NCBI GenBank assembly: GCA_963664825.1
Contig: OY761614.1
Location: forward strand, 3,410,697 to 3,474,696
Source: an uncultured Holophaga sp.
GTDB lineage: Bacteria; Acidobacteriota; Holophagae; Holophagales; Holophagaceae
Reading direction: 5' to 3'
Length of the DNA: 64,000 nucleotides
The translations under genes were made by a program, and so were the position numbers. Shown piece after piece: positions 21,687-64,000 of the stretch. The notes under the pieces were generated by a model. That model saw only the letters and a program-made list of their open reading frames with translations. It had not been told where the DNA came from and ran no database searches. The first letter of the stretch is position 1. Each line of letters starts with the position of its first letter.

Positions 21687-21687
21687 C

Positions 21688-23699: not shown

Positions 23700-23702
23700 G
23701 GG

Positions 23703-27362: not shown

Positions 27363-27395
27363 CCAACGTCTCCTGAATATACTTCACGATACAAC

Positions 27396-27420
27396 AAAGG
27401 CCCGCGTCGCACGGGCCTTT
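27396..27420 (-). terminator. Rho-independent terminator after the major pilin gene
   Basis: AAAGGCCCG-N7-CGGGCCTTT followed by GTTGT on the minus strand. Confidence 0.65.
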
Positions 27421-27438
27421 GAGACGAAGAGAGCGCCG

Positions 27439-28095: not shown

Positions 28096-28120
28096 GAAAG
28101 TGCCTCCGAGGGAGTGCCGA

Positions 28121-28136
28121 AGCAACATGGATACCA
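28121..28136 (-). promoter_or_regulatory. Sigma54 (-24/-12) promoter of the pilin gene
   Basis: Minus strand TGGTATCCATGTTGCT = GG-N10-GC with TTGC. Confidence 0.7.
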
Positions 28137-28242
28137 AAGGAATCGGCTCAAAGGGAGAATGCCTTGAGCCCAAGGTCCGGTTCCCGCCGGAGGCCCTGGA
28201 TAAATTTCCCTGCCCCAGCTACCATAATCCTTGCGATCCACC

Positions 28243-31452: not shown

Positions 31453-31465
31453 GCCTCGGTGAACT

Positions 31466-32752: not shown

Positions 32753-32880
32753 TCACCGTGCCCCCCTTCCCCATCGCTCAGGAATCACTCCCCGGTGATT
32801 CCCTCCTCGCCGGGGGACCCGACTCCACGGAGTCCGCCGGACTCCGCTCCGTCACCCGGCGGTCGGGAGGTGCCGCATGA
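32749..32880 (+). other. Palindromic element that also reads as a 43-aa ORF coupling flhF to flhG
   Basis: ATGA overlaps at both ends; MITVPPFPIAQESLPGDSLLAGGPDSTESAGLRSVTRRSGGAA; internal hairpins GGAATCAC/GTGATTCC and CGGAGTCC/GGACTCCG. Confidence 0.6.
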
Positions 32881-33740
32881 CGGACCAAGCCTCTCGTCTC
32901 CGGGCCATGGCCCGCCAACAGGTGCCCGAAGCGACCCTCTTCAGCTCCCGGGTCATGGCCATCACATCAGGCAAGGGAGGAGTCGGGAAAACGAACGTGG
33001 TCGCCGGATTGGCCATGTCACTGACCCAGACCGGTCAGCGGGTGGTGGTGCTGGATGCCGATTTCGGCCTGGCCAACCTGGATATCCTGCTGGGCCTCAG
33101 CCCCACCTACACCCTGGAACATGTCCTCCGGGGGGACAAGGTGCTGGAGGAGATCATCCTCGACGGCCCCATGGGCATCCGCATGATCCCGGCCTCCAGC
33201 GGCATCCAGGAACTCACCCGCCTGGATACCGGCGCCGAGCTGCGACTCATCCAGGGCCTCCAGCGGGTCTCGGAGACCACGGACTGGATGCTCATCGATA
33301 CGGCTGCGGGCATCCACGATTCAGTTATCAAGCTCCTCCTGGCTGCCCAGGAAGTGCTGCTGGTGACCACACCGGAGCCCACCTCCCTGGTGGACGCCTA
33401 CGCCATGGTCAAGGTGATCCACCTGCGGGATCCCCATAAACCCATCTGGCTGCTGGTGAACAACGCCCAAAGCGAAGACGAGGCCGAGGAGACCATCGAA
33501 CAGCTCCAGGCCGCCACCCTGCGCTTCCTGGGTCGGGAGCTCAAGGTCCTCGGCATGATCCCCGCCGATCCCTGCCTGCTCCAGTCCGTGCGGGAACAGC
33601 GGGGCGTGGTGGAACGTTTCCCCAGGAGCCCCTCGGCCCTGGCCTTCCGCCAGATCGCCGATCAAATCAAGAAAAAGGTGCCCTTACAAAAAGACGGATT
33701 TGCTTCATTCTGGAAGCAACTAAGCCTTGGGGACCTATGA
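32877..33740 (+). CDS. flhG: MinD-like ATPase FlhG/FleN
   Basis: DQASRLR, SGKGGVGKT, DADFGLANLD. Confidence 0.95.
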   Translation: MTDQASRLRAMARQQVPEATLFSSRVMAITSGKGGVGKTNVVAGLAMSLTQTGQRVVVLDADFGLANLDILLGLSPTYTLEHVLRGDKVLEEIILDGPMGIRMIPASSGIQELTRLDTGAELRLIQGLQRVSETTDWMLIDTAAGIHDSVIKLLLAAQEVLLVTTPEPTSLVDAYAMVKVIHLRDPHKPIWLLVNNAQSEDEAEETIEQLQAATLRFLGRELKVLGMIPADPCLLQSVREQRGVVERFPRSPSALAFRQIADQIKKKVPLQKDGFASFWKQLSLGDL

Positions 33741-34639
33741 ATCCGACGAAGAAGGCTATCCCTTCGCCGCCGAAGCTATCGGCGCCCCCCCAAGGTGCGC
33801 CCAAATCCGTTGTCGGCCGGGCAGCGGCGGCGGCTTATCAGAAGTCGGCCGCCCTGCCACCCTATGAAGAGCTTCCGGTGGCCGAGCCAAATCAGCACTC
33901 CCGGCCTGAGTTTTCCGAGGACCTGGATGTCTTCCAGGACCGGGAGACCCTCATCACCGAGTGCCTGCCCCTGGTCAAGTTCGTGGCCCACCGGATCTCG
34001 GCCCGCCTGCCCGCCCACGTGGAACTGGACGATCTCATCCACTCCGGGATCCTGGGCCTGATGGACGCCCTCAAGAAATTCGAGCCCGGCCGCAACGTGA
34101 AATTCAAGACCTACGCCGAGCAGCGCATCCGGGGCGCCATCCTGGATGGTCTCCGGGATCTGGACTGGATACCGCGCTCCCTGCGCCGCAAGAAGAAGGA
34201 CATCGAGGGTGCCTACCACGCCCTGGAACAACAATTCGGAAGGGCCGCCACGGATGAGGAGGTGGCCAAACACCTGGAGATGCCCCTCGAGGAGCTCCAC
34301 AAGTCCCTGGACGAACTCAAGGGCATCACCCTGGGCGCCTTCATGGACGCGGGGGAGGATGGCGAAGGGGAAAACCTCATCAGCTTCGTCCCCGATCCCG
34401 ATGCGGAGGACCCCTCCATCACCCTTCAGGCCCGGGAACTCCGGGCGATGTTGAAGCTGGCCGTGGATCTGCTGCCCACCAAGGAACGTTTCGTGGTCCA
34501 GCTCTACTACTTCGACGAGCTAACCATGAAGGAAATCGGCACCCTCCTCAATATCACCGAGAGTCGGGTATCGCAATTGCATACTAAGTCCATGCTCCGA
34601 CTCCGGGGCAAGCTCAAAGAACGCCAGATCCACAGTTGA
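33737..34639 (+). CDS. fliA: Flagellar sigma factor (sigma-28) with Pro/Ala-rich N-terminal extension
   Basis: RIRGAILDGLRDLDW, TESRVSQLH. Confidence 0.95.
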   Translation: MNPTKKAIPSPPKLSAPPQGAPKSVVGRAAAAAYQKSAALPPYEELPVAEPNQHSRPEFSEDLDVFQDRETLITECLPLVKFVAHRISARLPAHVELDDLIHSGILGLMDALKKFEPGRNVKFKTYAEQRIRGAILDGLRDLDWIPRSLRRKKKDIEGAYHALEQQFGRAATDEEVAKHLEMPLEELHKSLDELKGITLGAFMDAGEDGEGENLISFVPDPDAEDPSITLQARELRAMLKLAVDLLPTKERFVVQLYYFDELTMKEIGTLLNITESRVSQLHTKSMLRLRGKLKERQIHS

Positions 34640-43788: not shown

Positions 43789-44802
<1,014 letters not shown>

Positions 44803-44847
44803 TCATCGGTGTTGAAACCAGCTCACGACGTTTTTCTGCTAGACCCT

Positions 44848-45933
<1,086 letters not shown>

Positions 45934-45945
45934 TCAGGTGAAGCC

Positions 45946-47576
<1,631 letters not shown>

Positions 47577-49124: not shown

Positions 49125-49919
49125 CTACCAGTTCCGCTCTGGGCGCTCGTCCTTCACCACACTGCGGGCGATCCAACAGACGCGGCCGAGGATGAGGCGC
49201 TGGATCGGGATACCATCCACATTGATCGCGATTGTCTTGAATCCAGAGGCGTCTGAGGCGAAACAAATTCGATCATCCTTAACGTGGACACGCTTAATTC
49301 GGGCATCTACGCTGGTCGGGTCTGTGCGTACCAGATAGAGCGCGTCCCGTTCTGGTTCCACGCGCAGTTCCAACGCGGTGTTTATCAGCACCAAGTCTCC
49401 TGGGTGGAGCGTTGGACGCATGGACTCACCTGTGCATTCCACAACGTAGCAATCCGCTGCGGTGCCCCCTCCACATTCGCGGAGTAGCTCCTGGAGGAAG
49501 TCTTTGCGGAAGGGAAGGCGGTAAGCCGAAGGTCCTGGATCTGCAATTTCGCCACCAGGCCCACAAGAGGCGGCTCCAGGGATTACTGGGCGATATTCGG
49601 TCTCGGCATCATCTAGCGGAGCTAGGGTTGCTGGAACCCATATCGGTTCTTCACCCCTCAGGATCCAAGCGGCCGAGATGCCGTGGAAGTGCTCCATGGC
49701 TCCCGCTTCGAGAGCAGTGAGGCTTATCTGGTCCGTCTCCCATCGTGAAATCGCAGCACGTGAACGTTCCATTGGCGCGCCAAAAGATTCCAGAGTTTTA
49801 CCCAGCGCGGTCCTTGCGCGTCTAACCCTTTTGCCTGGAGTCTGAATTTCAGCTTTGCTCACGATGCGCAACAACCTCTTGACGTGTTTCCTATCGAGAC
49901 TTACTGTTCTCCTGTTCAC
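49125..49919 (-). CDS. Phage CI-like repressor (XRE HTH plus S24 peptidase)
   Basis: RVRRAR...SRAAISRWE HTH; GESMRPTL (Ser) and IKRV (Lys) S24 dyad; start uncertain. Confidence 0.9.
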   Translation of the reverse strand: MNRRTVSLDRKHVKRLLRIVSKAEIQTPGKRVRRARTALGKTLESFGAPMERSRAAISRWETDQISLTALEAGAMEHFHGISAAWILRGEEPIWVPATLAPLDDAETEYRPVIPGAASCGPGGEIADPGPSAYRLPFRKDFLQELLRECGGGTAADCYVVECTGESMRPTLHPGDLVLINTALELRVEPERDALYLVRTDPTSVDARIKRVHVKDDRICFASDASGFKTIAINVDGIPIQRLILGRVCWIARSVVKDERPERNW

Positions 49920-50045
49920 ACTTCGTGAACTAAGTAATCGGAGACTTGAATGCTACCCGAAAAAGCCCCGCGCAAGAGGGCGGCCTATGGCCTGCCTCCA
50001 AGCACCCAAGCCATCCTAGCCACGGCTTCGGATGTTCAACATCTC

Positions 50046-50282
50046 ATGTCGAATGGCATCAATCTGGATGGCAGCCTGAAACCGGAAGCCGTCCGAGCCC
50101 TCCTGAAGCTCAAAGGTATCAATGTCCGTGTGCTAGCCGAGACGCACGGGTACACGGACCCTTACTTCCATCAGGTTATCAACCGGGACTGTCGTGACGT
50201 GGTGGTGGAAGACGTCCTGGCAGAAACCTTAGGGCTCGAAGCTGACCGCATCTGGGGGCGGCTCCGGAAAGAAATCGCGTAG
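50046..50282 (+). CDS. Ner/Cro-like phage DNA-binding protein
   Basis: Small HTH divergent from the repressor; VRALLKLKGI...LAETLGLEADRIW resembles Mu Ner; start may be 49950. Confidence 0.7.
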   Translation: MSNGINLDGSLKPEAVRALLKLKGINVRVLAETHGYTDPYFHQVINRDCRDVVVEDVLAETLGLEADRIWGRLRKEIA

Positions 50283-50524: not shown

Positions 50525-52152
50525 GTATCGATTCACCCCCCTTGTCCCTGTGACCACGTAAGCCGGTGGCAGGCAGCCATGATGGGCTGGTGATGTCCCG
50601 CTTGCCCTGGCAGCCTCAGGCTGGTTCCAGTGCCGGTAGGGGCTGGTTGGATCGGGCGGAGTGGAGGGCCCTGAGCAGCCAGTCGAAGTAGGGGACGCCG
50701 CGGATGCGGGCGGTGGTGCCCAGGCTCAGGAGGCGTTCGAAGAATCGCTTTCCGTCCGCGCTGGGCAGTCGCTGGAAGATCCGCTTGAGGATCACGAGGG
50801 GGCGCAGGGCCCGCTCGGCCGCATTGTTCGTCGGCTCCACGCCCTCGACCTTCAGGAACACCCAGAGCTTGTCCCATTTCCGGAGGAGGTCCTTCCCGAG
50901 GTTTCGGGCGGCCTTGTGATCCATCGCGCTGGCCTGGATCAGACCGCGTTTGAGCCGCGCCAGATTGATGGCGGTGCAGGCCCGGAGCTCTTTCCGGCTG
51001 ATGTCGCCCGCCCGGAAGGTGTGCCACAGCGCAAAGATCTCCTCCTGCTCGGCGAGCAGTCGCTTTCCCAGTGCGGCCACCTCGGGCTTCTGGGATTCGC
51101 TCAGGGCGACGAACTCGCGGCGCAAATGGGCCCAGCAGAACTGGCGAACGGCAGATTTTAAGGCGTTGTAGGCGCCGTAGCGGTCCGTGCCAATCACGCC
51201 TTGGAAGTCCTCGGGAAGTATCGCCTTTAGGGCCCTCGCCCCACGGGTGTCACTGAAGTGGAAGAGGGCCGTACGGGCGGAAAGGGCCACCCAGATCCAG
51301 TCCCGGTCCTTCCGGCCGAAGCCGGTCTCGTCGAGGTTGAGCACATCCGCCGTACGGATCTGCTGGGAGAGGTCCTCCCAGGCGGGGAGTAGGTGGCTCC
51401 CCAGCGCCACACCGCTCTCGTGCAGCCAACCGCGTGAGACCGCTACGCCCGTCACCTCCGAGAGGAAACGCTGGAGCGGCGTCAGGCTCATGCGGCCCTC
51501 TGTGCGCAGATAGGCCGCCGCAGCCTGAAGGCGCGGGCCGATCCCGCCCGGCGCAGCCTCTGGGGGAAGCGGCGCCTGCACCTTCCTCTGGCAGTGCGGG
51601 CAGATCCCCTCCTCCAGCGCGTAGGCGATGACTTCTGTGAGGCGCTGAGCCAGATCCACCACCCGGTGCAGGCGCGTCCCGGTGATGGCCCCTGAAGGAA
51701 CCTCGCCTCGGCAGTGGGGGCAACAGGCGAGGGGCACCGAAACCGTACGGTCCTCGCTGCCTTCCGGCAGCATCACCCGAGCGGATCCCTTCCGTCCCGG
51801 TTGGCCGCCGCGCTTGCGCCCCGTGGGCGGCGCCGGTGGCTTGGGTGGCGCCGCGGGTCCGTCCGAACTGGGGGGCTTGCTGCTGTTGCGACTGTCCTTC
51901 CCGAGGCGATCCTGGAGCGACTCCAGCAATTTTTCCAGGCGTTCCATCGCCTCCCGCAGGCAGACCATTTCCGCACGCAGTTCCCCGTTCTCGGCAGCCA
52001 GGGCCAGATAACGCGGATCAGTCAGAACAGGATCAAGCTCCATCCTTCAGAATCTGACTGGTTTGAGACCAAAGTACAAGCGAATTATTCACTTGCGGTG
52101 ATTTTATCCTCAATCACGAGTTGAGCCTGCATGGGGGGGGGTGAATCGATAC
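50525..52152 (-). mobile_element. IS66-family element (single-ORF, ISBst12-like), 1628 bp, copy 1
   Basis: Terminal IRs GTATCGATTCACCCCCC / GGGGGGTGAATCGATAC; flanks are not duplicated. Confidence 0.93.
50616..52043 (-). CDS. IS66-family transposase
   Basis: DSRNSSKPPSSD, GGQPG, Zn finger, DET, TDRYGAY, CWAHLRR, PTNNAAERALR. Confidence 0.97.
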   Translation of the reverse strand: MELDPVLTDPRYLALAAENGELRAEMVCLREAMERLEKLLESLQDRLGKDSRNSSKPPSSDGPAAPPKPPAPPTGRKRGGQPGRKGSARVMLPEGSEDRTVSVPLACCPHCRGEVPSGAITGTRLHRVVDLAQRLTEVIAYALEEGICPHCQRKVQAPLPPEAAPGGIGPRLQAAAAYLRTEGRMSLTPLQRFLSEVTGVAVSRGWLHESGVALGSHLLPAWEDLSQQIRTADVLNLDETGFGRKDRDWIWVALSARTALFHFSDTRGARALKAILPEDFQGVIGTDRYGAYNALKSAVRQFCWAHLRREFVALSESQKPEVAALGKRLLAEQEEIFALWHTFRAGDISRKELRACTAINLARLKRGLIQASAMDHKAARNLGKDLLRKWDKLWVFLKVEGVEPTNNAAERALRPLVILKRIFQRLPSADGKRFFERLLSLGTTARIRGVPYFDWLLRALHSARSNQPLPALEPA

Positions 52153-52566
52153 GAACCATGTCCCGTAGTCCGGTTTGAGCTAGTGTAGCGCGGCAAAATG
52201 AATCGTCGGGAATCCGTCAGAAAGATTGGTAGCTTTCAATCATTTTGACGGATTTGGCCTATCGGCCTCAGGTTCCGCAACAGAAGCGGAATCTGTTGCG
52301 GAAACGCCACCTCCCCGTTCCCCAACTTCAATACCTTGCTCATCCCATTTCCTTCCCCGCCCCAACAGAAGACTCTGAAGTGTCTCCTGTCTCAAAAAGC
52401 TTGGCGCGGGGGGTACCGCGATTGGGGTGTCCCTGCACGAATGTCCTAAAAATGGTGGTTTTGATTTGGCGGATATTTTATCATTAGACGATGATCTCAT
52501 CCTCTGAAACCCAATTCCTTTCCTTGGGTTCATCTTGTGGCCAAATTTTGTTTCTGGAGAGCGGTC

Positions 52567-55500
52567 ATGGCTCTATCTGACGTAGGTCTATTGGTGCCTC
52601 GGTTCATTCGCGAATTAGTGGCAGCACTTCTGCTGCTTTCCTGGGGCTCCCTTTTTGCTCAAAGCTATCAGACAAATTTTGCGGAAGTCCAGCATGACCG
52701 AACGAAGGCTCCTTCGACTTTCCACGGTGGGGTTGATGTTGAGGCTTCAACAGGTGCTGTCAATGTGAATGTCCCTCTTGGGCCTGGGATAGGGGCTCGT
52801 GGAGCTGTATTCCGGCCCGTGCTTCATGGCCGTTTTGCTCCAGCAATAATGAATGTTTTGACTTCTGACATAATTACAATAAATAATGTGGCGTATCTAT
52901 TTGCCTTAACCAAGGGGCAGATCACTAGCCCTGACGGTTTTACGCTAAGCGCGGGTGATTTGAGGATCCCTCTAGGAAATAGGGGCGATCAGCTTTACGG
53001 GGCGTGGGGCTACACGCTCCCTGATGGAAGCGCGGGCAGCCTCAACCCTGTGACACAGCAGCTTCCGCAAGGGGCAGAGATTGATCCCAAGCATTTGGCC
53101 TCTCGTTTCGGTTTTGGGTCTGAGTGGTCAGGTCCATCATCTATCATGCCCCAATACCGTGGGGGGGGGCAGGGGGAACTCGGAGTGCCGCTCTGCAGTG
53201 TTCAGAAACCTCAGATCGTTCGCCCTACCTCAATCATGAATGACGAGAGCACCCCTGTAGATGACCCGGATGGCTTGCCTGGCCAAATCACTGCACCTTC
53301 CGTTGTGCTGATCGTGAAGGCGGAGGTGGCTTATGAATACAGTTTCCAAGAATTTGTTTATCATCGACGTAAACGTCGTCCAGATGATAATAAAACCGAG
53401 TACCCAGCCAAGTATTATGACAGTAACGGCGAACTGCTTATTTTTGATAGCAAACTTGCTTACTACCGTTTGACCCGAATTATCAACCGTCTTGGGGAAT
53501 CGATTACTATCACCTACAATAGCGGGCCTGGGGCCTTCACGGCGACTTGGTCGGTGGATCAATCTCAAACGATAACGGTTGCAAGCGGTGCCCAAAGCTG
53601 TGTAACATACAACGCATTTGGGACTGACTTCAACTACACTATAGTCAAAGAAACCTATCCTGGATCCCAATACGGGAACCCTCTTTTTAATGATCATTTG
53701 AATTACCGGAGTTCCAATTTGGAGGGACAGATCTATATTGGGTCTGAAAGCTATACCCCGCCTCTTTGGGTGAGCCAGGTTACTCAGGATTCAACCCAGG
53801 AAAACATTGGATTCACTTACGACAACCAGCAAAGCATTCGTTTGGATATTTTGGATGACCGCGCTCGTGGGTGTAAAACCGTCGTACTTCGCTCCGTCTC
53901 ATTCCCTGGGCGAACGGTGGGTTTCGATTGGGCACGCTACCCATATCGTCGCAATGTGTATGATTCCCTGGATGCTGGAGGCTGGAAAGGCTATGCGGGA
54001 CAATTTGGAGACGCTCCTGTGGGCATGCTGGAGCTGGTCCCAGGTGGTTGGCAGCAGGCTTTTTTAGGTGTTTCCAAGATCACAGAAACGGACCAAGCCA
54101 GTGGTCAGGTGCGGATCACCACCCATGACCGCGTCGTCCCTATCCCGGATACCACGACTCCCTGTCAGTGGCTGAGCACCGAATTCAAAGACAATATCAC
54201 TTATCCTGACGGCAGCTCGTCCTTGCTGCAATTCGTGGGTCCCATCAATAATGGGCATACCGGAGGAAGCCAAGGAAGCACCCTCGACGAGCAGATGCAG
54301 ACGTTGGCTCACCTGAAACACCAACTGGCAGCACAACTCGACCAAGGGAAAGCCGCTCCTGGGCGTGGAGGGATGCTTCGGCGGGCAGTTGCTTATGATC
54401 GATGGGATGTGCGGAGCATTGCGAATGCCTCCGGTTCCATCCTGACAACCAGTGTTCCTTACCCTACCCGTATCAGAGTTTATGACTATCTTGCAGGCCA
54501 GGGAATGGGAACTGAACAATTAGAATGGGACGCTACGAACCTTGGTTGGACCTGGACGCTTCAGGCGAGCTTCACTGATCCATCCCGAGCATTTGGGGGT
54601 AGCAATTCTGAGATTTGCAGTCTTGCACAGCGTGGAGCAGGTAATCCGGCCGCACCAAGCGATGCCGCTTATCAGAAGGACACCCGTCGCGTCTTTTCCT
54701 CAGTACCTAAGGAGTGGATTTTTAATCGAGTAGATTCCGAACAGAGCACCATCAAAGATCAAACCGAGGGGCATGATGTTTCGACGCCAGCCAGCCTTAC
54801 TCTTCCTCGTCAGAGCACAGCTTGGGATCCCGCAGTCAGCTTTTTGAGTCGTCCAACAACAACGACCCTTGTATCAGCAGATGTTGGGAGCTTCACAACT
54901 TCATACAGCTATCTGGGTACCGAGGGTGCCAAAGCGACACAGATTCAGGGCATTACTGTAGTAAATAATTCTTTGGTAATGGGTAACGGAGAAATCGGCA
55001 TCCAAAAATATGAATACAACCCACGAGGATCGCTCTGTCTCATCCAGAACAGAGGAATGAACTGGAACATGCAGCAGACCAGCGATGCCCTTGGTCGTCC
55101 TATTGATCAGACGGATCCTAGTGGGCTTGTGACCCAGATTCAGTGGGGTCCGGCGGGTCGCCTCAAATCTGTCCAGCCCTCCAGCGAAAAGGGGATATCC
55201 CTCGTTTGGGACGACGACAATCTGGGGGTTGTGATGAACCGGGGCGTTCAGAGCACCCATCTGCGTTACAACGGTTTCGGAGATCTGATTTGCGAAACCA
55301 GGAACAATCCCGGCGGTACTCAATCCCATCGTAGCTATGGATATGATGCCTCAGGGCGTAAAACATGGGAAAGTCTTTGGCTTCGGGGGCCTGGCGCGGA
55401 CACGTTTTGGACACAGGCTACGCCGGAAGGAGGAATGGGTTGGGTCTATACATATGATGAATTCGGACGCGTGACCCGCTCAGTGGACCCTAACGGTTCC

Positions 55501-58500
55501 ATCACAGATACGGCCTACAGTGTGGATGGCAACCCACGCGTAAACATTCAGAAGGTCTATCCATCCCCCACTAAAGAACTGGTGACCACCTTCACCCACG
55601 ATCTATTAGGGCGCCTTGTTGGGGTTAAAGATCCCAAAAATCAGACAACGACCTATGCTTTCAATGCGCGGGGTCAGCGCACTCGCGTTGATCAGGTAGG
55701 GGATAGCAAGGAGCAACTTCGAATCTGGACTTACAATGATGTTGGTTGGCTGACGTCGTTGGCGCAGCCGGAGAGTGGCATTACCCGTTTCGAACAATTC
55801 ACCGTGGTGGGAAAGCCAACTTTAACTACCTACGCAGGGGACGGGAGCACTCCGGCGCGACAGGTTCAGACCACGTTTGATAGTATTATGCGAGTCCTTC
55901 GTGTGGCCGCTGCAGATGGATCGGTGGATCAGACCTTTACCTATGATGAGGCGAACCATGGTGCCGCTAATAACAAACTGACAACAGACATGGACTTAGG
56001 TGTAAGTAGAAGCTATACCTACGATGCCGCTTTCAACGGACGGTTAAGTCGGTTGGAGACGAATTTCCCAGGGGTTGGAACCCCCTTGGCCCAGACTTTT
56101 ACTTACAATACTTACGGGCTACGCACAAGCGCTGTGACCGATCAGCGCAGTGTTTCCACGACCTTTACCGAGGAAACAGGGCTGCCGAGTTCCGTAGGTT
56201 ATCAGGGGAATCAAATCGCAGTGACGGCATACTACCAGGATCCCAGGACCCTGGCCAATCTGAGTTATCAGGGCGCGGCGAGCGTTGCCAGTTTCTTTAC
56301 TTACGCTGATGACCAAATTCGTCTTAAAACGCTTTCCCACACATTCGCCGACCAAACGGTGGCCCAGCCCTCCTGGGTCTATCGGTATGATGGTGCCGGG
56401 CGATTGCTAACGGACGGAGACGATAGTTACGAGTATGATGATTTGGATCGCCTACAAAAGGCCACGATCCGTTGCCTGGATGGTAGTCAACTCATACAAA
56501 ACTTTGACTTTGACGCTTTTGGCAACTTGCTGTCCATCCAAAATAGCAGGGACGACATTGGCTTAAAGGGGAATTTCACGCATCTACCGTCGGACCCAGA
56601 TATGGCAAACCTTGCCAGTCGGAATCGCCTGCCCCGCAATGATAAGACGGGTGCTGTGTACGACGGACAGGGGAACCTGACTCAAGTCTTTGCGACCTTT
56701 AGCGAGGCAAATGATGCCCGGAGTCTTACCTACGATGCCCTGGGACGCGTGACGAGTCTGGGGGATTCCAGTCTGGGCGTATCTGAGCGCTACCGGTACA
56801 CAGCCGATGGCCTGCGGGCTGTTATTGAAGTGCGTCAAGGGACCACACTCAAGGAACGGCGCTATTGTATCTACAATGACGCGCGTCAATTGGTGAGCCA
56901 GTATTTGGAAAACTTACAGGGTGGAACTGTTCCCACTTCAGGAGGGATGCTTAAGGCTAAGCTAGCTGTGAAAAATATGGCGGCAACCAAACCCAAAGCC
57001 GGAGCAGTGATCGACACCCCTTCAACCGATATCACTGTGAAGGTGGGAAACAACATTTGGTTTCATGGGTCATCCTGCCATGCAGATATGGGCAACTGGG
57101 CTTTCGGGGATGGTACGCAAGGCGGACATGCTTCGGACGACGGCGTGTTTTCTGCCACGCACGCTTATGCGACTCCAGGTGTTTACACTGTGACTCTCAA
57201 GGTAAGCGACAGTCAGTTGATTTATGGTTCCGACTCCGCCACACGAAAGGTGACCGTTCTGGCAAGTCCTCCAGTGATTCAAAGTTTCACGACCAGTGCT
57301 ACGACGATTCGCATTGGAGAGAGCGTGACTCTGGCCTGGTCTGCTTCCGCCACCACGATCACCGTTGCCGGCAGCGCAGTATCTGCTATTGGAAGCCAAT
57401 CCGTGAGCCCCACTGTGAACACTACGTATACCCTAGTGGCCATGAATCCAGCAGGGACAGTGAGCCAATCCGTTACTGTTGTGGTTGTGCAATCACCAAC
57501 GATTTCAGGTTTCTATGCAAATCCAGTTAACATTTTCCAGGGGGATGGCACGACGTTGGCATGGAGCGTCAGTGGAGCCACTAGCCTTAGCATGGATAAT
57601 GGAATTGGGGATGTGACCGGGAAGAGTGAGTATGGGGTGAGCCCTAGCGGGGGGACAACCTATGTGCTGACGGCGACCAACACGCTGAATGGCCTGAGTG
57701 TGAGCCGGAGCTCGAGCCTGGGTGTGAGTGTCAACCCTAGGCCCACAGTACCAAACATTCTTACGTTTGCTGCAGATGCGACCAGCGTCAATGAGGGTGA
57801 GGGAACGTATTTGCGGTGGAACGTGACGAATGGGGTGGGAACCGTGAGTGTGACGTTCAGCGGTGCTGCGGTCGCAGCCAGTGGGACACGATGGGTTACC
57901 CCATCGAATACAACCAGCTTCCGACTAGTGGCCACCAATGATTTGGACGCCAGTAAACTTGTAAGTTCCGATGTGACAGTGAAAGTAATTCCAAAACCTG
58001 TCGTAAAAGCTCCTGTTATACAGACATTTAGTGGGCCGTCATGGGTGCCAGAAGGGAACAATGGAACCTTGAGTTGGAGTGTGGTCAACGATCCGACTTC
58101 CGTTGTAATTACTCCAAATATTGGTTTAGTTGGGGCTTCTGGTCAAATAAGTGTGACTATTTTGAAGGATACAACTTATACAATTACTGCCACCAACTCG
58201 GCTGGTTCTGATAGCATCAGCTTTTCGATAGGGGTTATTCCGACACAACTCGTGATCAAGACTTTTAAAGCAGATGTTGGCACAATTACTCTAGGCCGGA
58301 GCACGACGTTGAGTTGGGATGTACCTGGTGCCACGAGTTTTAAAATAAATGGTATAGATGTGAGCGGGAACAGCGTGGTGGTGGCACCTGGGAGCAGTAC
58401 GGATTACACATTGGTGGCGTCAAATGGCAGCCAGAATGTAGAAAGTCCGACTGTGCATGTGACGGTGCAGGTAGCCGGAAGCCTGTTATGGAAGCGTGAT

Positions 58501-59469
58501 ATCGTTTACATGGGTGGTAAGGAAATCGCGGAATTCGATAACCAAGGGATGCATGTCACCCTGGTGGACCATCTTGGTAGTCCTAGGTTTTTGGTTCAGC
58601 CTGGAGGTAGGGTGTTGCAGCAAAAGTTTACTCCATTTGGAGAATCTTTGATAAGTACAGACACTTCTGACAAATTTGGCAAAGGATTCACGAACCACGA
58701 GCAGACTGACACATCAGGGCTCATTTACATGCAGGCTCGCATGTACTTGCCCGCCTATGGGCGCTTTGCAAGCCCCGATCCGGCCAAGGATCAGCATCCA
58801 GATGACCCGCAAAGTTGGAATCTGTATAGCTACTGCACTAATAACCCGGTCTCGAAGACCGATCCCACTGGAATGTGGGAATGGCCTGAATGGGCGCAAA
58901 AGGTAAGTAGTCTTGCGGCCTATGGGAAATGGCAGACGTTCGATCAAAACACGAAAAACGTTGTCTATTCTCAAACCCCCATTGGGCCTGATGGTCGTCG
59001 TCAAATCGACACAACCTGGGGTGTGAACGTCAACGGCGAATACATTAAGCAATACGACCATCGAGCCATTCAGGATGACAGCGGTAGTTTGCTTGTGTTG
59101 GCTGGCGCTGCAAAGCTGACCGGAAGCCTCGCGAGAGCTGGTACAGAAGCATTGACAAGAGAAGCTGGATCTGCTGCAGCAAGCACTCAAGAGACCACTG
59201 TTATTGGAAGAGTCAGAGACCTTCAGGCGCTACAGTCTGGGGAACGATCCTTGTTAGATCGCCTTCCAGATCAAGGAAGCCCACAGGCAAACTGGGCGCA
59301 AAACTCGGGAGTGCTTAGACAAGAGTTATCGCGAGGGCTACCCATTAGAGATGCGTCACCAGGTGATGTGAGTGGTCAATTCTTAAATGCTGAGCGAAAT
59401 TTGTTGAGAGATCGTGGCTGGACATTTGATTCGAAGAGCAACTTTTGGAATCCTCCGGTGGAGAAATGA
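52567..59469 (+). CDS. Rhs/YD-repeat polymorphic toxin with signal peptide and internal PKD plus five Ig-like domains
   Basis: Signal LFA|QSYQ; many YD repeats; core DHLGSPR, GFTNHEQ, YMQARMY, NNPVSKTDPTG; starts at 52537/52594 also possible. Confidence 0.95.
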   Translation: MALSDVGLLVPRFIRELVAALLLLSWGSLFAQSYQTNFAEVQHDRTKAPSTFHGGVDVEASTGAVNVNVPLGPGIGARGAVFRPVLHGRFAPAIMNVLTSDIITINNVAYLFALTKGQITSPDGFTLSAGDLRIPLGNRGDQLYGAWGYTLPDGSAGSLNPVTQQLPQGAEIDPKHLASRFGFGSEWSGPSSIMPQYRGGGQGELGVPLCSVQKPQIVRPTSIMNDESTPVDDPDGLPGQITAPSVVLIVKAEVAYEYSFQEFVYHRRKRRPDDNKTEYPAKYYDSNGELLIFDSKLAYYRLTRIINRLGESITITYNSGPGAFTATWSVDQSQTITVASGAQSCVTYNAFGTDFNYTIVKETYPGSQYGNPLFNDHLNYRSSNLEGQIYIGSESYTPPLWVSQVTQDSTQENIGFTYDNQQSIRLDILDDRARGCKTVVLRSVSFPGRTVGFDWARYPYRRNVYDSLDAGGWKGYAGQFGDAPVGMLELVPGGWQQAFLGVSKITETDQASGQVRITTHDRVVPIPDTTTPCQWLSTEFKDNITYPDGSSSLLQFVGPINNGHTGGSQGSTLDEQMQTLAHLKHQLAAQLDQGKAAPGRGGMLRRAVAYDRWDVRSIANASGSILTTSVPYPTRIRVYDYLAGQGMGTEQLEWDATNLGWTWTLQASFTDPSRAFGGSNSEICSLAQRGAGNPAAPSDAAYQKDTRRVFSSVPKEWIFNRVDSEQSTIKDQTEGHDVSTPASLTLPRQSTAWDPAVSFLSRPTTTTLVSADVGSFTTSYSYLGTEGAKATQIQGITVVNNSLVMGNGEIGIQKYEYNPRGSLCLIQNRGMNWNMQQTSDALGRPIDQTDPSGLVTQIQWGPAGRLKSVQPSSEKGISLVWDDDNLGVVMNRGVQSTHLRYNGFGDLICETRNNPGGTQSHRSYGYDASGRKTWESLWLRGPGADTFWTQATPEGGMGWVYTYDEFGRVTRSVDPNGSITDTAYSVDGNPRVNIQKVYPSPTKELVTTFTHDLLGRLVGVKDPKNQTTTYAFNARGQRTRVDQVGDSKEQLRIWTYNDVGWLTSLAQPESGITRFEQFTVVGKPTLTTYAGDGSTPARQVQTTFDSIMRVLRVAAADGSVDQTFTYDEANHGAANNKLTTDMDLGVSRSYTYDAAFNGRLSRLETNFPGVGTPLAQTFTYNTYGLRTSAVTDQRSVSTTFTEETGLPSSVGYQGNQIAVTAYYQDPRTLANLSYQGAASVASFFTYADDQIRLKTLSHTFADQTVAQPSWVYRYDGAGRLLTDGDDSYEYDDLDRLQKATIRCLDGSQLIQNFDFDAFGNLLSIQNSRDDIGLKGNFTHLPSDPDMANLASRNRLPRNDKTGAVYDGQGNLTQVFATFSEANDARSLTYDALGRVTSLGDSSLGVSERYRYTADGLRAVIEVRQGTTLKERRYCIYNDARQLVSQYLENLQGGTVPTSGGMLKAKLAVKNMAATKPKAGAVIDTPSTDITVKVGNNIWFHGSSCHADMGNWAFGDGTQGGHASDDGVFSATHAYATPGVYTVTLKVSDSQLIYGSDSATRKVTVLASPPVIQSFTTSATTIRIGESVTLAWSASATTITVAGSAVSAIGSQSVSPTVNTTYTLVAMNPAGTVSQSVTVVVVQSPTISGFYANPVNIFQGDGTTLAWSVSGATSLSMDNGIGDVTGKSEYGVSPSGGTTYVLTATNTLNGLSVSRSSSLGVSVNPRPTVPNILTFAADATSVNEGEGTYLRWNVTNGVGTVSVTFSGAAVAASGTRWVTPSNTTSFRLVATNDLDASKLVSSDVTVKVIPKPVVKAPVIQTFSGPSWVPEGNNGTLSWSVVNDPTSVVITPNIGLVGASGQISVTILKDTTYTITATNSAGSDSISFSIGVIPTQLVIKTFKADVGTITLGRSTTLSWDVPGATSFKINGIDVSGNSVVVAPGSSTDYTLVASNGSQNVESPTVHVTVQVAGSLLWKRDIVYMGGKEIAEFDNQGMHVTLVDHLGSPRFLVQPGGRVLQQKFTPFGESLISTDTSDKFGKGFTNHEQTDTSGLIYMQARMYLPAYGRFASPDPAKDQHPDDPQSWNLYSYCTNNPVSKTDPTGMWEWPEWAQKVSSLAAYGKWQTFDQNTKNVVYSQTPIGPDGRRQIDTTWGVNVNGEYIKQYDHRAIQDDSGSLLVLAGAAKLTGSLARAGTEALTREAGSAAASTQETTVIGRVRDLQALQSGERSLLDRLPDQGSPQANWAQNSGVLRQELSRGLPIRDASPGDVSGQFLNAERNLLRDRGWTFDSKSNFWNPPVEK

Positions 59470-60053
59470 AAAGGAAAATTGCAACAGTGTATCCAGGAAA
59501 TGAAGCTATTGACTTGAAAGAGATTGCTCAAGAATCGTTGCCATTTATTACTGAATTAGGCTTCATTGTCGTTGAGTCATCGCCAAATATCGTTCGTTAT
59601 CAACGGAATGGAATTGAGATCGAGGTATATCACGAGCACATTTCGCACGAAATTGGACTCGGAGTCAGATGTTTAGGTGTTCGTTATTCCTTGTCGGATG
59701 TCATCCGGGCTGTAAATCCAATTGCGGCAAAAGAGTTTCGTGATGCAGCTGCGACTACACCTGAAGAAATGGTGGTCGGCCTGAAGGCGGCGGGACAGAT
59801 GCTTCTGCGTTATGGAAGTTCTGTGATGAAGGGTGATTTGGAATCTTGTGAAGCGCTAGCAGTTCAGCGAAAGGCATGGGGTGAAGAATATGCTCTCGAT
59901 GTCCTCACCAATCAATTACGGCCACAAGCGGAAGAAGCCTTTCGGGGTGAAAATTATTTGAAGGTAGTTGAACTCTACACCCGCATCTATCCTCGATTGA
60001 GCCCATCAGAAATCAAGAAGCTTGCGATTGCTAAAGAGCGTAGTAAGGGCTAA
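59466..60053 (+). CDS. Putative cognate immunity protein
   Basis: ATGA overlap with the Rhs stop; AT-rich, 195 aa. Confidence 0.75.
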   Translation: MKRKIATVYPGNEAIDLKEIAQESLPFITELGFIVVESSPNIVRYQRNGIEIEVYHEHISHEIGLGVRCLGVRYSLSDVIRAVNPIAAKEFRDAAATTPEEMVVGLKAAGQMLLRYGSSVMKGDLESCEALAVQRKAWGEEYALDVLTNQLRPQAEEAFRGENYLKVVELYTRIYPRLSPSEIKKLAIAKERSKG

Positions 60054-60121
60054 TCGATAATTTTTTCAGATGACAGACTGCCAGAGTTCAGGAGAAGACC
60101 CCTCCCGTTTTTCGGCAGTTT

Positions 60122-60336
60122 CAGAAAGGGCCTCGCGGCCCTTTCTGCTTTTCACCTCTGCCGTGTGTCCCGGTCGTGAGCCCCCCGCAGGGGGATGGGG
60201 CTCATGGCCGGGTGCAAGCGTTCTACTTGTTTGTGCGGTCTTTGATACTTGGATGACCCGAATACTTCCACGGACACCCCGCGATCCGGGAGCGTGCCAG
60301 GCACATTTCCTGGCGCGATTCCGGAGGGGTGGGCCG
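60122..60336 (+). other. Structured non-coding element (multiple hairpins)
   Basis: CAGAAAGGGCC/GGCCCTTTCTG; CCCGGTCGTGAGCCCC/GGGGCTCATGGCCGGG; CGTGCCAGG/CCTGGCGCG. Confidence 0.55.
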
Positions 60337-60486
60337 GGTGATGCGTTCCCGATGGACTCTTTTTGGCTGCAACAGGTCAAGCCAAAGTGGAAACAAGGGC
60401 GCTCGAAGAGCGTCCGCCAGTTTCCCGTTTTGAGTCGCAATGGATGCGTTTCTGAGGTGGTATTGATGGCCAAAGACCATCCCCGA

Positions 60487-60640
60487 TAGGGTAATGCCCG
60501 CAACAGAACAATATCCCAACGGCTACTGGAAGCTTGAGAAGCCTATGTCCAATGGGAGTTGGCAGCCGATTGATCCATCGACAATGAAGCCTGGGGGTCG
60601 CCCTCAAACCCATGTCCCATTGCCGGGAGCGGAGGATTGA
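60487..60640 (+). pseudogene. 5'-truncated orphan toxin tip
   Basis: [14 protein letters not shown]...[10 protein letters not shown], identical to the end of 61004-61486. Confidence 0.8.
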
Positions 60641-60643
60641 ACC

Positions 60644-61000
60644 ATGTATGGACTACCTAAGGATTTGGATCTGTCGGTTTTTATCAATAAGGAAATTGAA
60701 GAAATAACATTCACTGTTAATACGATCGTGTTTTGTTTCGGCATTGGGCTCTCTATTACCACAGAATCAATTGTGGAATTCTTCTATCTGAAAGATGGAT
60801 CTTGCTGTTGTGTCGAGCCACCTGTTGAATCATCGAACCTGATGATGTTGTTGGGGAAAAAGATAGTTAATGCTATCGCCAACCCTAACGGGAAGTTGGA
60901 GCTTGCATTTGATGATGGAATGAAGCTTGGATTTTTAGATGATAGTTCTCAATACGAATCGTATCGAATCAATATTGACGGAAAAGAAATTGTTGTTTAA
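60644..61000 (+). CDS. DUF6188-like putative immunity protein, copy 1
   Basis: MYGLP...LLGKKI...LELAFDDG...DDSSQYESY; follows a toxin tip. Confidence 0.75.
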   Translation: MYGLPKDLDLSVFINKEIEEITFTVNTIVFCFGIGLSITTESIVEFFYLKDGSCCCVEPPVESSNLMMLLGKKIVNAIANPNGKLELAFDDGMKLGFLDDSSQYESYRINIDGKEIVV

Positions 61001-61003
61001 CTG

Positions 61004-61486
61004 TTGTCGCAAACAAAAAAAGACACCTATCAAAGCAAATCTGGTGAGGTTGTTGAACGCGCTCTGAAAGGCGACTTTAAGGGTGCATTCAAGAGTCTGA
61101 TGCAGGCTTGGGGATTGGCGGTCAAAGATCCCGAATGGGTCGCAACTGCGGTTGTCGCGACTGCGGCACCATTTGTTGCCGGAGAAGGCGCTGCTGCAAG
61201 AGGTGCTGCTGAAGCCGGGGGTGCCGAATCAAGCCTGACCCCGAAAGGGGCACCAAAGCCGTCGCCGAAATTCCAGGCTCCGACGAATCCTGCGCAATTG
61301 CCCCCTGAAACGGTTCCGCAGGGTTGGCGCGTTAGGGTAATGCCCGCAACAGAACAATATCCCAACGGCTACTGGAAGCTTGAGAAGCCTATGTCCAATG
61401 GGAGTTGGCAGCCGATTGATCCATCGACAATGAAGCCTGGGGGTCGCCCTCAAACCCATGTCCCATTGCCGGGAGCGGAGGATTGA
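61004..61486 (+). pseudogene. Orphan Rhs C-terminal toxin fragment
   Basis: TTG start with no clear RBS; Ala/Gly-rich helices, then PTNPAQLPP...YPNGYW...THVP. Confidence 0.7.
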
Positions 61487-61859
61487 ACCATGTATGGACT
61501 ACCTAAGGATTTGGATCTGTCGGTTTTTATCAATAAGGAAATTGAAGAAATAACATTCACTGTTAATACGATCGTGTTTTGTTTCGGCATTGGGCTCTCT
61601 ATTACCACAGAATCAATTGTGGAATTCTTCTATCTGAAAGATGGATCTTGCTGTTGTGTCGAGCCACCTGTTGAATCATCGAACCTGATGATGTTGTTGG
61701 GGAAAAAGATAGTTAATGCTATCGCCAACCCTAACTGGAAGTTGGAGCTTGCATTTGATGATGGAATGAAGCTTGGATTTTTAGATGATAGTTCTCAATA
61801 CGAATCGTATCGAATCAATATTGACGGAAAAGAAATTGTTGTTTAACTGTTGTCGCAAA
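61333..61859 (+). repeat. 527-bp direct repeat, copy 2
   Basis: Offset 846 bp from copy 1. Confidence 0.95.
61490..61846 (+). CDS. DUF6188-like putative immunity protein, copy 2 (G->W)
   Basis: Identical to 60644-61000 except NPNGK vs NPNWK. Confidence 0.75.
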   Translation: MYGLPKDLDLSVFINKEIEEITFTVNTIVFCFGIGLSITTESIVEFFYLKDGSCCCVEPPVESSNLMMLLGKKIVNAIANPNWKLELAFDDGMKLGFLDDSSQYESYRINIDGKEIVV

Positions 61860-62179
61860 TAGTAAATGTTACAGAAATGACGAGAGCATTAGATAGTGGT
61901 CCAGCAAGAACACTGGCCACGGAGAGGGGTTTTCATTCTGGAACAATTATTTATGATGGCAAATCATATAACTTGGTAGAGGTTGAAAGAAAAGATGGTA
62001 ATGCTGTCGCCCAGAATCGCTCCTTCAAATCAATGGATGAAGCGGTCAAAGCATTCGGACATGGTCCTGAATCTGGGAAGGATTTCGCGGTAACTATTAA
62101 ATCTACTGTTCAAATCAAGTTGGTTGTCCCTGTTGACAAAGTTGCAGAAAATCTAGTCAACAAATGGAACGCAAAATGA
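61850..62179 (+). pseudogene. Second orphan toxin-tip-like fragment
   Basis: AT-rich ORF fused at the same CTGTTGTCGCAAA junction; ends in an ATGA overlap. Confidence 0.5.
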
Positions 62180-62293
62180 ATTGGCTATCCAATGATAGGA
62201 ATGTATCCAGGAAAGGGTGAAGGCAACTGCCATTCATTTACGCACTATACTGCGGAGGTACTGCGAATTCCTCATCCAGAGAAAGCAACCCGT

Positions 62294-62816
62294 TTTCCCT
62301 AGCCAAAACCTCATCGTAGGGGTGAAGGGCCGCTGCGAAGGCACCGAAGTCCATCGGTTGCGGCCCATCTGAAGGCCCCACTCTGAAGGTTTTTGGCTTT
62401 CATGGCGGGGCACCGCCTGAACTTCAGCTTCTGAGCATTCTCCGGGCAGGCTCACGCCTGCCCGATCCATGTCGGGCCAGCAGGACCCTTCGCAGCTTCA
62501 GGCGGTCATCCTCCACTCGTACCTGTGGTGCAGTCCGCCGCATCGAGGCAGGGCCACCACGTTGGTCGGTCCTTTTGGGGTAGGGCTGGCGCGGCCTGGA
62601 ACCGGGCTCTCCTTGCCCAATGCAAGGTGAGTCCGATCCTTGTGGTAATAGCTGAGGTAGCCCTTCAGAAGCCGCATCAGGTGTTGCTCGTCCAGCACAA
62701 TGACATGGTCGAGCAGCTCACGCCTCAGGGTTCCGATGAAACGCTCGCAGACGCCGTTCTGCCATGGGCTTCGGAAGCTGGTCTGCTTGGGGATGATGCC
62801 CAGAGACTGGATGAAC
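62294..62816 (-). mobile_element. 3' part of an integrase-core (rve) transposase element, interrupted by IS66
   Basis: Minus frame ending at 62498: FIQSLGIIPKQTSFRSPWQNGVCERFIGTLRRELLDHV...YYH..RTHLAL..GGLHHRY; element end approximate. Confidence 0.85.
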
Positions 62817-62972: not shown

Positions 62973-64000
62973 GTATCGATTCACCCCCCCCCCATGCAGG
63001 CTCAACTCGTGATTGAGGATAAAATCACCGCAAGTGAATAATTCGCTTGTACTTTGGTCTCAAACCAGTCAGATTCTGAAGGATGGAGCTTGATCCTGTT
63101 CTGACTGATCCGCGTTATCTGGCCCTGGCTGCCGAGAACGGGGAACTGCGTGCGGAAATGGTCTGCCTGCGGGAGGCGATGGAACGCCTGGAAAAATTGC
63201 TGGAGTCGCTCCAGGATCGCCTCGGGAAGGACAGTCGCAACAGCAGCAAGCCCCCCAGTTCGGACGGACCCGCGGCGCCACCCAAGCCACCGGCGCCGCC
63301 CACGGGGCGCAAGCGCGGCGGCCAACCGGGACGGAAGGGATCCGCTCGGGTGATGCTGCCGGAAGGCAGCGAGGACCGTACGGTTTCGGTGCCCCTCGCC
63401 TGTTGCCCCCACTGCCGAGGCGAGGTTCCTTCAGGGGCCATCACCGGGACGCGCCTGCACCGGGTGGTGGATCTGGCTCAGCGCCTCACAGAAGTCATCG
63501 CCTACGCGCTGGAGGAGGGGATCTGCCCGCACTGCCAGAGGAAGGTGCAGGCGCCGCTTCCCCCAGAGGCTGCGCCGGGCGGGATCGGCCCGCGCCTTCA
63601 GGCTGCGGCGGCCTATCTGCGCACAGAGGGCCGCATGAGCCTGACGCCGCTCCAGCGTTTCCTCTCGGAGGTGACGGGCGTAGCGGTCTCACGCGGTTGG
63701 CTGCACGAGAGCGGTGTGGCGCTGGGGAGCCACCTACTCCCCGCCTGGGAGGACCTCTCCCAGCAGATCCGTACGGCGGATGTGCTCAACCTCGACGAGA
63801 CCGGCTTCGGCCGGAAGGACCGGGACTGGATCTGGGTGGCCCTTTCCGCCCGTACGGCCCTCTTCCACTTCAGTGACACCCGTGGGGCGAGGGCCCTAAA
63901 GGCGATACTTCCCGAGGACTTCCAAGGCGTGATTGGCACGGACCGCTACGGCGCCTACAACGCCTTAAAATCTGCCGTTCGCCAGTTCTGCTGGGCCCAT
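62973..64000 (+). mobile_element. IS66 copy 3 (opposite orientation), runs off the window
   Basis: IR GTATCGATTCACCCC at 62973; reverse complement of copy 1. Confidence 0.95.
63083..64000 (+). CDS. IS66 transposase, partial at window edge
   Basis: MELDPVLTDPRYLALAAENG..., same as copy 1. Confidence 0.95.
   Translation, partial: MELDPVLTDPRYLALAAENGELRAEMVCLREAMERLEKLLESLQDRLGKDSRNSSKPPSSDGPAAPPKPPAPPTGRKRGGQPGRKGSARVMLPEGSEDRTVSVPLACCPHCRGEVPSGAITGTRLHRVVDLAQRLTEVIAYALEEGICPHCQRKVQAPLPPEAAPGGIGPRLQAAAAYLRTEGRMSLTPLQRFLSEVTGVAVSRGWLHESGVALGSHLLPAWEDLSQQIRTADVLNLDETGFGRKDRDWIWVALSARTALFHFSDTRGARALKAILPEDFQGVIGTDRYGAYNALKSAVRQFCWAH

Follow-up and report, generated by a model that had tools for sequence, protein, structure and literature searches.

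How do Rhs toxins without a type VI secretion system (T6SS) find and hold their targets, and when does the toxin enter its shell? These open questions are raised by a gene of an uncultured Holophaga sp. (Acidobacteriota, Holophagaceae; GenBank assembly GCA_963664825.1). The window analyzed here is a 64,000-nucleotide stretch of contig OY761614.1 (positions 3,410,697 to 3,474,696, forward strand), and the gene is a single open frame on its plus strand (52537-59469) that encodes an Rhs/YD protein of 2310 amino acids. Between two strands of the predicted shell, this protein carries a 524-residue insert, or arm, made up of a basic linker, a PKD domain, and five immunoglobulin (Ig)-like repeats. 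We find that this insert architecture is real, intact, and conserved, and that the turn carrying it is empty, fused to an insert, or apparently the boundary between two genes in relatives. The best explanation of the locus, and a reasonably probable one, is a Sec-exported antibacterial Rhs toxin that holds the arm out on a display turn, where it would bind the surface of the target cell.

The protein, intact and signal-like at its N-terminus, is a polymorphic toxin of the Rhs/YD class and has the features of that class, namely shell repeats, core motifs, an interchangeable tip, a probable immunity gene downstream, and orphan cassettes. Matches to RHS_repeat (PF05593), YD repeats (TIGR01643, YD_repeat_2x), and Rhs_assc_core flank the insert (Pfam, NCBIfam). 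Translation could start at GTG 52537 or ATG 52567, and residues 1-41 (52537..52659; features are on the plus strand unless stated) resemble a signal peptide by eye, in sequence and hydropathy: basic residues and a hydrophobic stretch (∼26-35) lead to LFA before QSY, and AQSY after the hydrophobic stretch is the consensus in homologs. The main shell and its N-terminal closure span residues 42-1458 (52660..56910), as assigned from RHS_repeat and YD matches and from a structural model, and no accessory domain was detected in this region. Downstream of the insert lies a lid (residues 1983-2113; 58483..58875), comprising the last shell strands and the Rhs-associated core (TIGR03696, E 3.2e-18; Rhs_assc_core at 2032-2113 in NCBIfam), with the autoprotease motifs PDPA (2080) and DPTG (2109) both intact. 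The remainder is a C-terminal tail (58876..59469), in which the final ∼95 residues are an unnamed polymorphic-toxin module with 921 relatives. An earlier reading of this DNA from its letters alone (the sequence-only reading) had described a signal peptide, a core protease and toxin tip left intact after the insert, and the absence of PAAR, VgrG, and WXG domains. These descriptions hold, that of the signal peptide by eye: the frame stays open to 59469, and the PAAR, VgrG, and WXG families have no match in the protein (Pfam, NCBIfam). A scan for promoters and terminators upstream of the gene found nothing.

The insert lies exactly where it had first been placed, since VSQYLE ends at residue 1458 and LLWKRD begins at 1983, leaving 524 residues between them (56911-58482). 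The proposal that the flanks are consecutive strands of the YD shell is likewise confirmed, because a paralog in the same genome (L001:5543-11221, 1892 amino acids) has 5-6 residues where the window protein has 524, and because solved structures of a teneurin-like protein (TLP) and of RhsP have a short connector at this turn when aligned to a profile of 43 insert-free sequences, which matched 41 distinct solved sequences. Near the C-terminal rim of the shell, this turn precedes the DPxG site by ∼127 residues. One 8133-base public contig spans 52384-60516 with zero differences in each of two sequencing runs, which may be the source data of the assembly, and an insert occurs at the same turn in 21 other proteins (among the 120 relatives listed of 145 found); the insert is therefore not an assembly artifact.

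The arm begins with a basic linker of 31 residues (1459-1489; 56911..57003) that is modeled at low confidence (predicted local distance difference test, pLDDT, <50 at 1467-1485). The PKD domain follows (residues 1490-1575; 57004..57261), with matches to PF18911 (E 1.9e-08) and PF00801 that both exceed the curated cut-offs (matched span 1520-1574), and its model superimposes on the ColG PKD domain (4tn9; Z 12.3, root mean square deviation, rmsd, 1.5, 81 residues aligned), a match separate from that of the shell. A profile built from homologs then locates five repeats of 75-85 residues each at residues 1577-1981 (57265..57489, 57490..57744, 57745..57999, 58000..58239, and 58240..58482), which are all-beta in the model and match Ig arrays. 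Across 27 distinct arms, from two shell clades that are ∼30% identical, the linker, PKD, and Ig parts follow one another in a conserved order, and the linker is net basic in 25 of the 27. An internal translation start within the linker was considered and rejected, given that the AGGAGG motif is one base before the ATG, which is too close for an ordinary ribosome-binding site, and that the methionine is absent from most other linkers. Many arms (P0002, P0047, L046, L047, L051) have a cysteine-paired loop, C..[WG].D..G...C..W, inside the PKD domain, and a similar loop occurs in a shell loop of many relatives (near window residue 960); the window protein has neither. Elsewhere in this genome, non-Rhs genes that encode secreted or lipoprotein-like products contain the arm-type Ig repeat too (G000:C1:362379-364694 and 288225-291644), a possible donor pool.

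The relatives of this protein carry the names Geothrix, Holophaga, Mesoterricola, and Holophagaceae. They were scored at the insert turn in protein, genome, and metagenome sets, which partly overlap; the protein query included the arm and so favors armed forms. Among the 120 listed relatives, 53 match the lid, comprising 21 with an insert, 13 with an empty turn, 2 without a shell, and 17 more distant proteins left unscored. In the genomes, 32 of 77 loci could be scored (9 fused, 9 split between two genes, 14 empty), and the first 43 of 78 metagenome loci yielded 10 fused genes, 11 empty genes, and 4 split loci. When the lid was used as a separate query, 47 of the 133 genomes in the window's family gave a match. 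The insert is thus present, absent, or variable at this loop, the comparison for which the sequence-only reading had called: its length ranges from 148 to 703 residues, and most inserts consist of a linker, a PKD domain, and one to five repeats. Others carry different Ig types, and in P0032 and L071 the turn holds unrelated paired repeats that resemble carbohydrate-binding modules (CBMs) by eye (no Pfam match). F5/8 and N_BRCA1_IG domains occupy this turn or neighboring ones. We consider it fairly probable that the turn is a permissive display site in the Holophagaceae-type Rhs family.

Cargo is also found at other turns. In the Rhs proteins L099, L101, and L102 (Blastocatellia/Pyrinomonadaceae), P0095, and L090, which are unrelated to the window protein, beta-sandwich domains sit in the next turn; this next-turn cargo (F5/8, N_BRCA1_IG, and other domains) lies just before the DHLG strand on the same edge of the shell, at the turn that forms Helical Region 2 in the T6SS effector Tse5. 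An insert of several hundred residues that includes an F5/8 domain lies one turn before the studied site in L083:4797-12872, and earlier turns hold two LamG-like domains in P0101 and a PPC-like domain in P0119. The final turns of the shell resemble a general-purpose platform for display.

The third state of the turn was not foreseen in the sequence-only reading. At 16 loci, the shell gene stops at the insert turn and a second gene runs from a hydrophobic, signal-like N-terminus through PKD and Ig domains to the lid, the core, and the tip of the toxin. Nine of these are genome loci (L042-L047, L051, L058, L075) and four are metagenome loci (L119, L120, L132, L140), to which L033, L228, and L232 are added (genomes G016, G163, and G496); L032 is also split and was omitted to prevent double counting. 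The second chain contributes ∼130 shell and lid residues, and its arm, at 376-1605 residues (14 measured), is often longer than the fused inserts, with their maximum of 703. In L140:1-9518, from the other shell clade, the basic linker forms a ∼84-residue tail on the shell gene, and the second gene opens with a signal-like stretch of its own and with Ig repeats. In G016, a further arm-lid gene, different in its tip, stands behind a shell remnant. G163 combines one split locus (L228, among L228-L231 and L234) with four single-gene members that have long inserts, and its orphan cassettes start part-way through the arm and carry the lid and a different tip.

Such loci could in principle be broken genes or assembly errors, with an insert that disables the shell or lies inside it, and it is true that many are on contigs of metagenome-assembled genomes and that 5 of the 10 junctions examined are in-frame TAG codons. 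The other five junctions change frame, however, and every split shell gene but that of L140 ends at the same strand, give or take a few residues. Each of the 16 second genes opens with a hydrophobic, signal-like stretch (by eye) and retains the arm, both halves are full length, and three of the loci belong to named strains (Geothrix rubra, G. limicola, and G. terrae). The window gene, moreover, is contiguous in public contigs, and the volume of its arm, given below, argues against a place in the lumen. This explanation is largely refuted, and we regard it as highly improbable. Stop-codon read-through and a single base error were each rejected as the cause of the splits, given the five out-of-frame junctions. 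Judged from these sequences, the insert turn is a native gene split point in the relatives. At eight junctions (L043, L045, L046, L047, L058, L119, L120, L132), the shell gene ends in GGAGTAG and an ATG follows 2-3 bases on; the GGAG in the last shell codons resembles a ribosome-binding site for the second gene, which suggests translational coupling.

The distribution of the three states was examined on a tree of the shell (720 residues before the turn, 64 rows after four duplicates and L083 were dropped; quick search). Empty, fused, and split states are interleaved, with 11 changes, where at least 3 would be needed and shuffling gives 28.5 on average. A single clade of split genes is rejected (p 0.0005), as is a single clade of fused genes within a 45-row subgroup that was picked after the tree had been seen. 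The window protein groups with P0008, among eight fused genes and one split gene. The direction of change between states is not readable from this tree. The arm tree mixes the two shell clades, but lateral transfer of the arm alone is not claimed, as the approximately unbiased (AU) test was not significant (p 0.235, 15 arms).

These observations bear on whether the arm is a tolerated passenger, or an aid to folding or secretion, placed by recombination of Ig-repeat DNA into a permissive turn and without a role in the choice of cell. Genes with an empty turn are frequent and intact, these genomes are rich in the repeat, and the orphan cassettes that start inside the arm show it serving as recombination homology, all of which speak for this account. 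It sits poorly with the linker-PKD-Ig order kept across the two shell clades, and with the retention of the arm behind a new signal peptide in all of the split second genes. Furthermore, between clades the arms of 11 five-repeat proteins are 40-58% identical, compared with 28-34% for their shells, although low complexity inflates the figure for the arms. A passenger role therefore seems improbable to us, and the arm as a displayed, target-binding element continues to be preferred.

Whether the shell can close around such an insert was addressed with an AlphaFold2 model of residues 930-2115 (36 sequences; pLDDT 81.6; predicted template modeling score, pTM, 0.62). Residues 1-1184 of this model fit the T6SS Rhs structure 8qja_D (residues 450-1076) with Z 31.6 and rmsd 2.9 Å over 577 residues. 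Because just 529 model residues precede the arm, the fit must take in shell and lid as one rigid body, and it supports a shell that closes across the arm. A second model, of residues 42-1230 (pLDDT 82, pTM 0.80), is shell from the mature N-terminus onward and aligns end to end with a T6SS Rhs protein that lacks a propeller (8qjb; Z 15.9, rmsd 3.3, 729 residues), albeit with many low-confidence loops. The arm is therefore the sole evident accessory part. From the rigid fit of shell and lid, and from the size of the arm relative to the chamber, we infer that the arm lies on the shell exterior: it has a mass of 53 kDa and a volume of ∼64,000 cubic Å, and the chamber of mosquito SGS1, larger than that of the window shell, measures ∼30 x 110 Å, or ∼78,000 cubic Å by our own arithmetic, so that the arm together with the 197-residue tail would not fit in the lumen. 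The idea of a loop insert outside the cage thus stands as to closure of the shell in the model, and its exterior position rests on fit and volume.

Domains of the Ig and PKD type are ∼35-40 Å long. In five-repeat arms, the linker has just 24-43 residues and is too short to span a straight six-domain chain, and thus a fused arm either bends back or is cut. Cutting of the linker is favored by its net basic character, its low modeled confidence, and its location where the split genes restart. An uncut, closed loop is favored by the weak rise of linker length with arm length (rho 0.44-0.56, in kin that are not independent) and by the split arms that are often longer than fused ones.

The toxin that this shell would enclose belongs to a widespread module. 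Its invariant residues include N, W, R, and D (window ∼59164 on), and unrelated Rhs proteins end in it; among 31 carriers scanned, which were picked mostly by length, 25 have RHS repeats. No Pfam family is shared among 37 members, a profile search against the PDB gave one chance-level match (E 0.87), and an Atlas search made with a homolog gave unnamed clusters only. The tips of other family members include phage lysozyme and TreTu_C, among others, consistent with antibacterial use. The downstream gene (59466..60053; 195 amino acids, 46 homologs) overlaps the Rhs stop codon at ATGA and is, by its sequence and position, the probable cognate immunity gene; its product has no signal-like N-terminus. 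In G050, but not in G212, the toxin module is again followed by a homolog of this gene (E 1e-49). Together, the tip and the gene that follows it make up a widespread toxin-immunity pair for which the libraries searched have no family name.

The setting for secretion agrees with the proposed independence from T6SS, as VipA, VgrG (Phage_base_V), and PAAR have no match in the genome (G000; 96.55% complete, single contig, positive controls). The genome encodes three secretins, one of which is in a T2SSE/T2SSF cluster inside the window. This cluster (19417-28173, minus strand) comprises a secretin, T2SSF, T2SSE/MshEN, and prepilins, of a type II secretion system (T2SS) or type IV pilus, and is a candidate exit route.

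The architecture and its three states as read from sequence, and closure across the arm as modeled, fit the following scheme for the displayed toxin. The protein would be exported by Sec and would fold outside the cytoplasm; self-cleavage after DPTG would leave the tail encapsulated in the shell. These steps are drawn from established Rhs biology, the cleavage being represented here by its motifs. With no T6SS present, exit might proceed through a secretin system resembling a T2SS, and the arm might project from the lid end to bind the surface of a target cell. In doing so, the arm would take the role that PAAR and VgrG, or N-terminal adhesion domains, have in other Rhs systems. The toxin would act in the cytoplasm, where the product of the downstream gene would protect the producer, and the arm would be an optional part that is gained, lost, and resized repeatedly. 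Receptor targeting by the arm is plausible. Several observations weigh against this scheme: the pTM of the arm-bearing model is 0.62 and the path of the arm is uncertain; 14 of 32 scored genome loci are empty yet intact-looking, so that a gene can be complete without an arm; the repeat, which is present in the genome's ordinary secreted proteins as well, may serve as no more than a spacer; the toxin-immunity adjacency recurs in one of two other loci; and arm exchange between shell clades is unsupported by the AU test.

The same arm could instead tether the loaded shell to the surface or matrix of the producer, as a spacer for contact-dependent display, with recognition located elsewhere, e.g., in the N-terminal shell loops. 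The adhesion modules of bacterial TLPs have been proposed to govern display on the producer surface (PMC13018210; this and the other papers cited are represented by the available part of their text), and the presence of the repeat in the genome's own secreted and surface proteins, the stalk-like length of the split arms, and the many low-confidence loops of the N-terminal shell would accord with such a role. However, the Pfam and NCBIfam scans gave no match to a lipobox, a membrane anchor, or a wall-binding family, and a fused arm is tied to the shell at both ends, making it a poor stalk unless the linker is cut. The discoidin-type cargo at neighboring turns, for its part, is of a class proposed to contact targets (PMC3482391). 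We therefore judge tethering to be unlikely, if less so than a passenger role, and retain target binding as the preferred function.

The split loci raise a further possibility, which we hold tentatively and as less probable than target binding itself: a "shell plus cartridge" toxin system in two parts. Its halves would be exported separately by Sec and be assembled beyond the cytoplasm, joining in the periplasm. The cartridge would consist of the arm, the ∼130-residue lid, and the toxin, separate from a generic shell, and the window gene would be a one-chain form, its basic linker taking the place of the stop and signal peptide of split genes; cleavage of this linker after export might free the PKD tip. 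The occurrence of the 16 split loci in two shell clades, the differently tipped second cartridge gene of G016, and the short linkers are in favor of such a system, whereas the weak rise of linker length with arm length, and fused inserts that are shorter than many split arms, are as expected for an uncut loop. Were it correct, aim and payload would travel together and could be changed without touching the shell.

The gene lies in an island of low GC content (∼0.50, compared with 0.637 for the genome) between inverted copies of an IS66 transposase gene (50616..52043, minus strand, NF033517; and, by sequence comparison, 63083..64000, plus strand, running off the window), an arrangement like that of a composite transposon. 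Following the immunity gene are orphan cassettes of a toxin tip and DUF6188 (60484..61846), found by sequence comparison, with an exact 300-nucleotide duplication that covers the end of the orphan tip and the start of the DUF6188 gene; a similar tip ends a full-length fused Rhs protein in L229. One contig of run X2 joins 52254 to 62303, with just 30 letters on its short side, and is weak. Beside the left IS66 copy, a divergent HTH/Peptidase_S24 repressor and a small HTH gene (49125-50282) resemble the control region of a prophage or mobile element. Elsewhere in the window, FlhA, FlhF-like, MinD-like, and sigma-factor genes (29359-34639) come after the secretin cluster, and three tandem, closely similar aldo/keto reductase genes lie in an oxidoreductase cluster (43789-46953, minus strand).

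In comparison with known systems, the window protein is an Rhs polymorphic toxin; it is not a T6SS effector, not a TLP, and not split in the manner of Tc BC components. Its shell and core have their best structural matches in T6SS Rhs effectors (8qja, RhsA 7q97, Tse5 8cp6, and Tse15), but it is without PAAR or VgrG, in a genome without T6SS markers. Tse5 has surface protrusions, and its Helical Region 2 (1031-1062) contacts the membrane in simulation (PMC10684867); this region maps to the turn next to the window insert and is a short helix, as opposed to six folded domains. Bacterial TLPs (9ifo, PMC13018210) are Sec-targeted, toxin-filled YD shells with an immunity gene and variable adhesion domains and occur in Acidobacteriota as well. 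As described there, however, they carry their adhesion domains at the N-terminus and possess an FN-plug and NHL propeller, whereas the NHL family has no match at E 0.1 in the window protein, and the model of this protein begins with shell at the mature N-terminus. In the alignment given above, TLP has a short connector at the turn in question.

Rhs repeats with embedded binding domains have been published before, and in this respect the claim of the sequence-only reading that the architecture is undescribed does not stand. The Sec/T2SS-exported Rhs toxins of Zhang et al. 2012 (PMC3482391) have a signal peptide, RHS repeats, a variable tip, an immunity gene, and adhesion domains set within the run of repeats or close to the toxin, which are proposed to improve contact with targets. 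They differ in the domains named (RicinB, discoidin, bulb lectin) and in the treatment of the repeats as a filament, and the available text mentions no "PKD", defined shell turn, or gene split; its supplement may list such architectures. In mosquito SGS1 (8fjp, PMC9935623), Ig-like beta-sandwiches (a CBM and a carbohydrate-recognition domain of the lectin type, lectin-CRD), together with other domains, putatively for receptors, are inserted in the YD repeats outside a closed shell. Ig-like domains within YD repeats and an intact shell are likewise found here, by sequence and model; SGS1 is eukaryotic, however, with single domains at mid-shell positions, and, as far as described, no tandem arm or split, and it runs through the window turn without a large insert (2495-2732, aligned to profile 128-352). 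What stands of the claim is that the insert site, the PKD/Ig arm, and the split at the level of the lid were not found in the literature searched, in which subscription journals are thinly covered and supplements may list further cases. The available parts of PMC7259588, 10.1101/2024.02.26.582050, and PMC10792529 do not describe the insert site or split, and "PKD" in PMC3486870 was discarded as denoting plasmid names. The concept of an embedded adhesin is not new, and the defined empty, fused, or split site, especially in its recurring two-gene form, is the part that specialists would probably regard as new.

The nearest parallel to that two-gene form is the Tc pair TcB-TcC, or YenB-YenC2 (6h6g, 4igl, 6l7i), an Rhs shell of two polypeptides, the second of which has the core protease and toxin; the fold of the pair is a close match (Z ∼25). 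TcC contributes ∼660 shell residues from ∼1008, as placed on the protein studied here, whereas the second chain of the split relatives contributes ∼130 after a break at ∼1458, and both chains of these relatives have signal-like N-termini. TcB has a propeller for TcA binding (PMC9935623), and no Pfam match to the SpvB, FG-GAP, or TcdB families was found in the window protein; the model of its N-terminus gave Z 9.5 (rmsd 4.4, 217 residues) with SpvB-N and Z 10.9 (rmsd 3.9, 890 residues) with TcdB2-TccC3. Delivery and release are left unresolved in the available text of PMC13018210 and 10.1101/2024.02.26.582050, and the present locus points to a modular aiming of toxins without an injection machine. 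The natural variants at one defined turn, whether empty, fused, or split, include some from cultured Geothrix strains and several from a single genome (G163), and they make it possible to test what the arm does and in which order the shell is assembled and loaded. If the separately exported, ∼130-residue lid is real, it would give two-chain Rhs cocoons a second route, independent of that of TcB-TcC.

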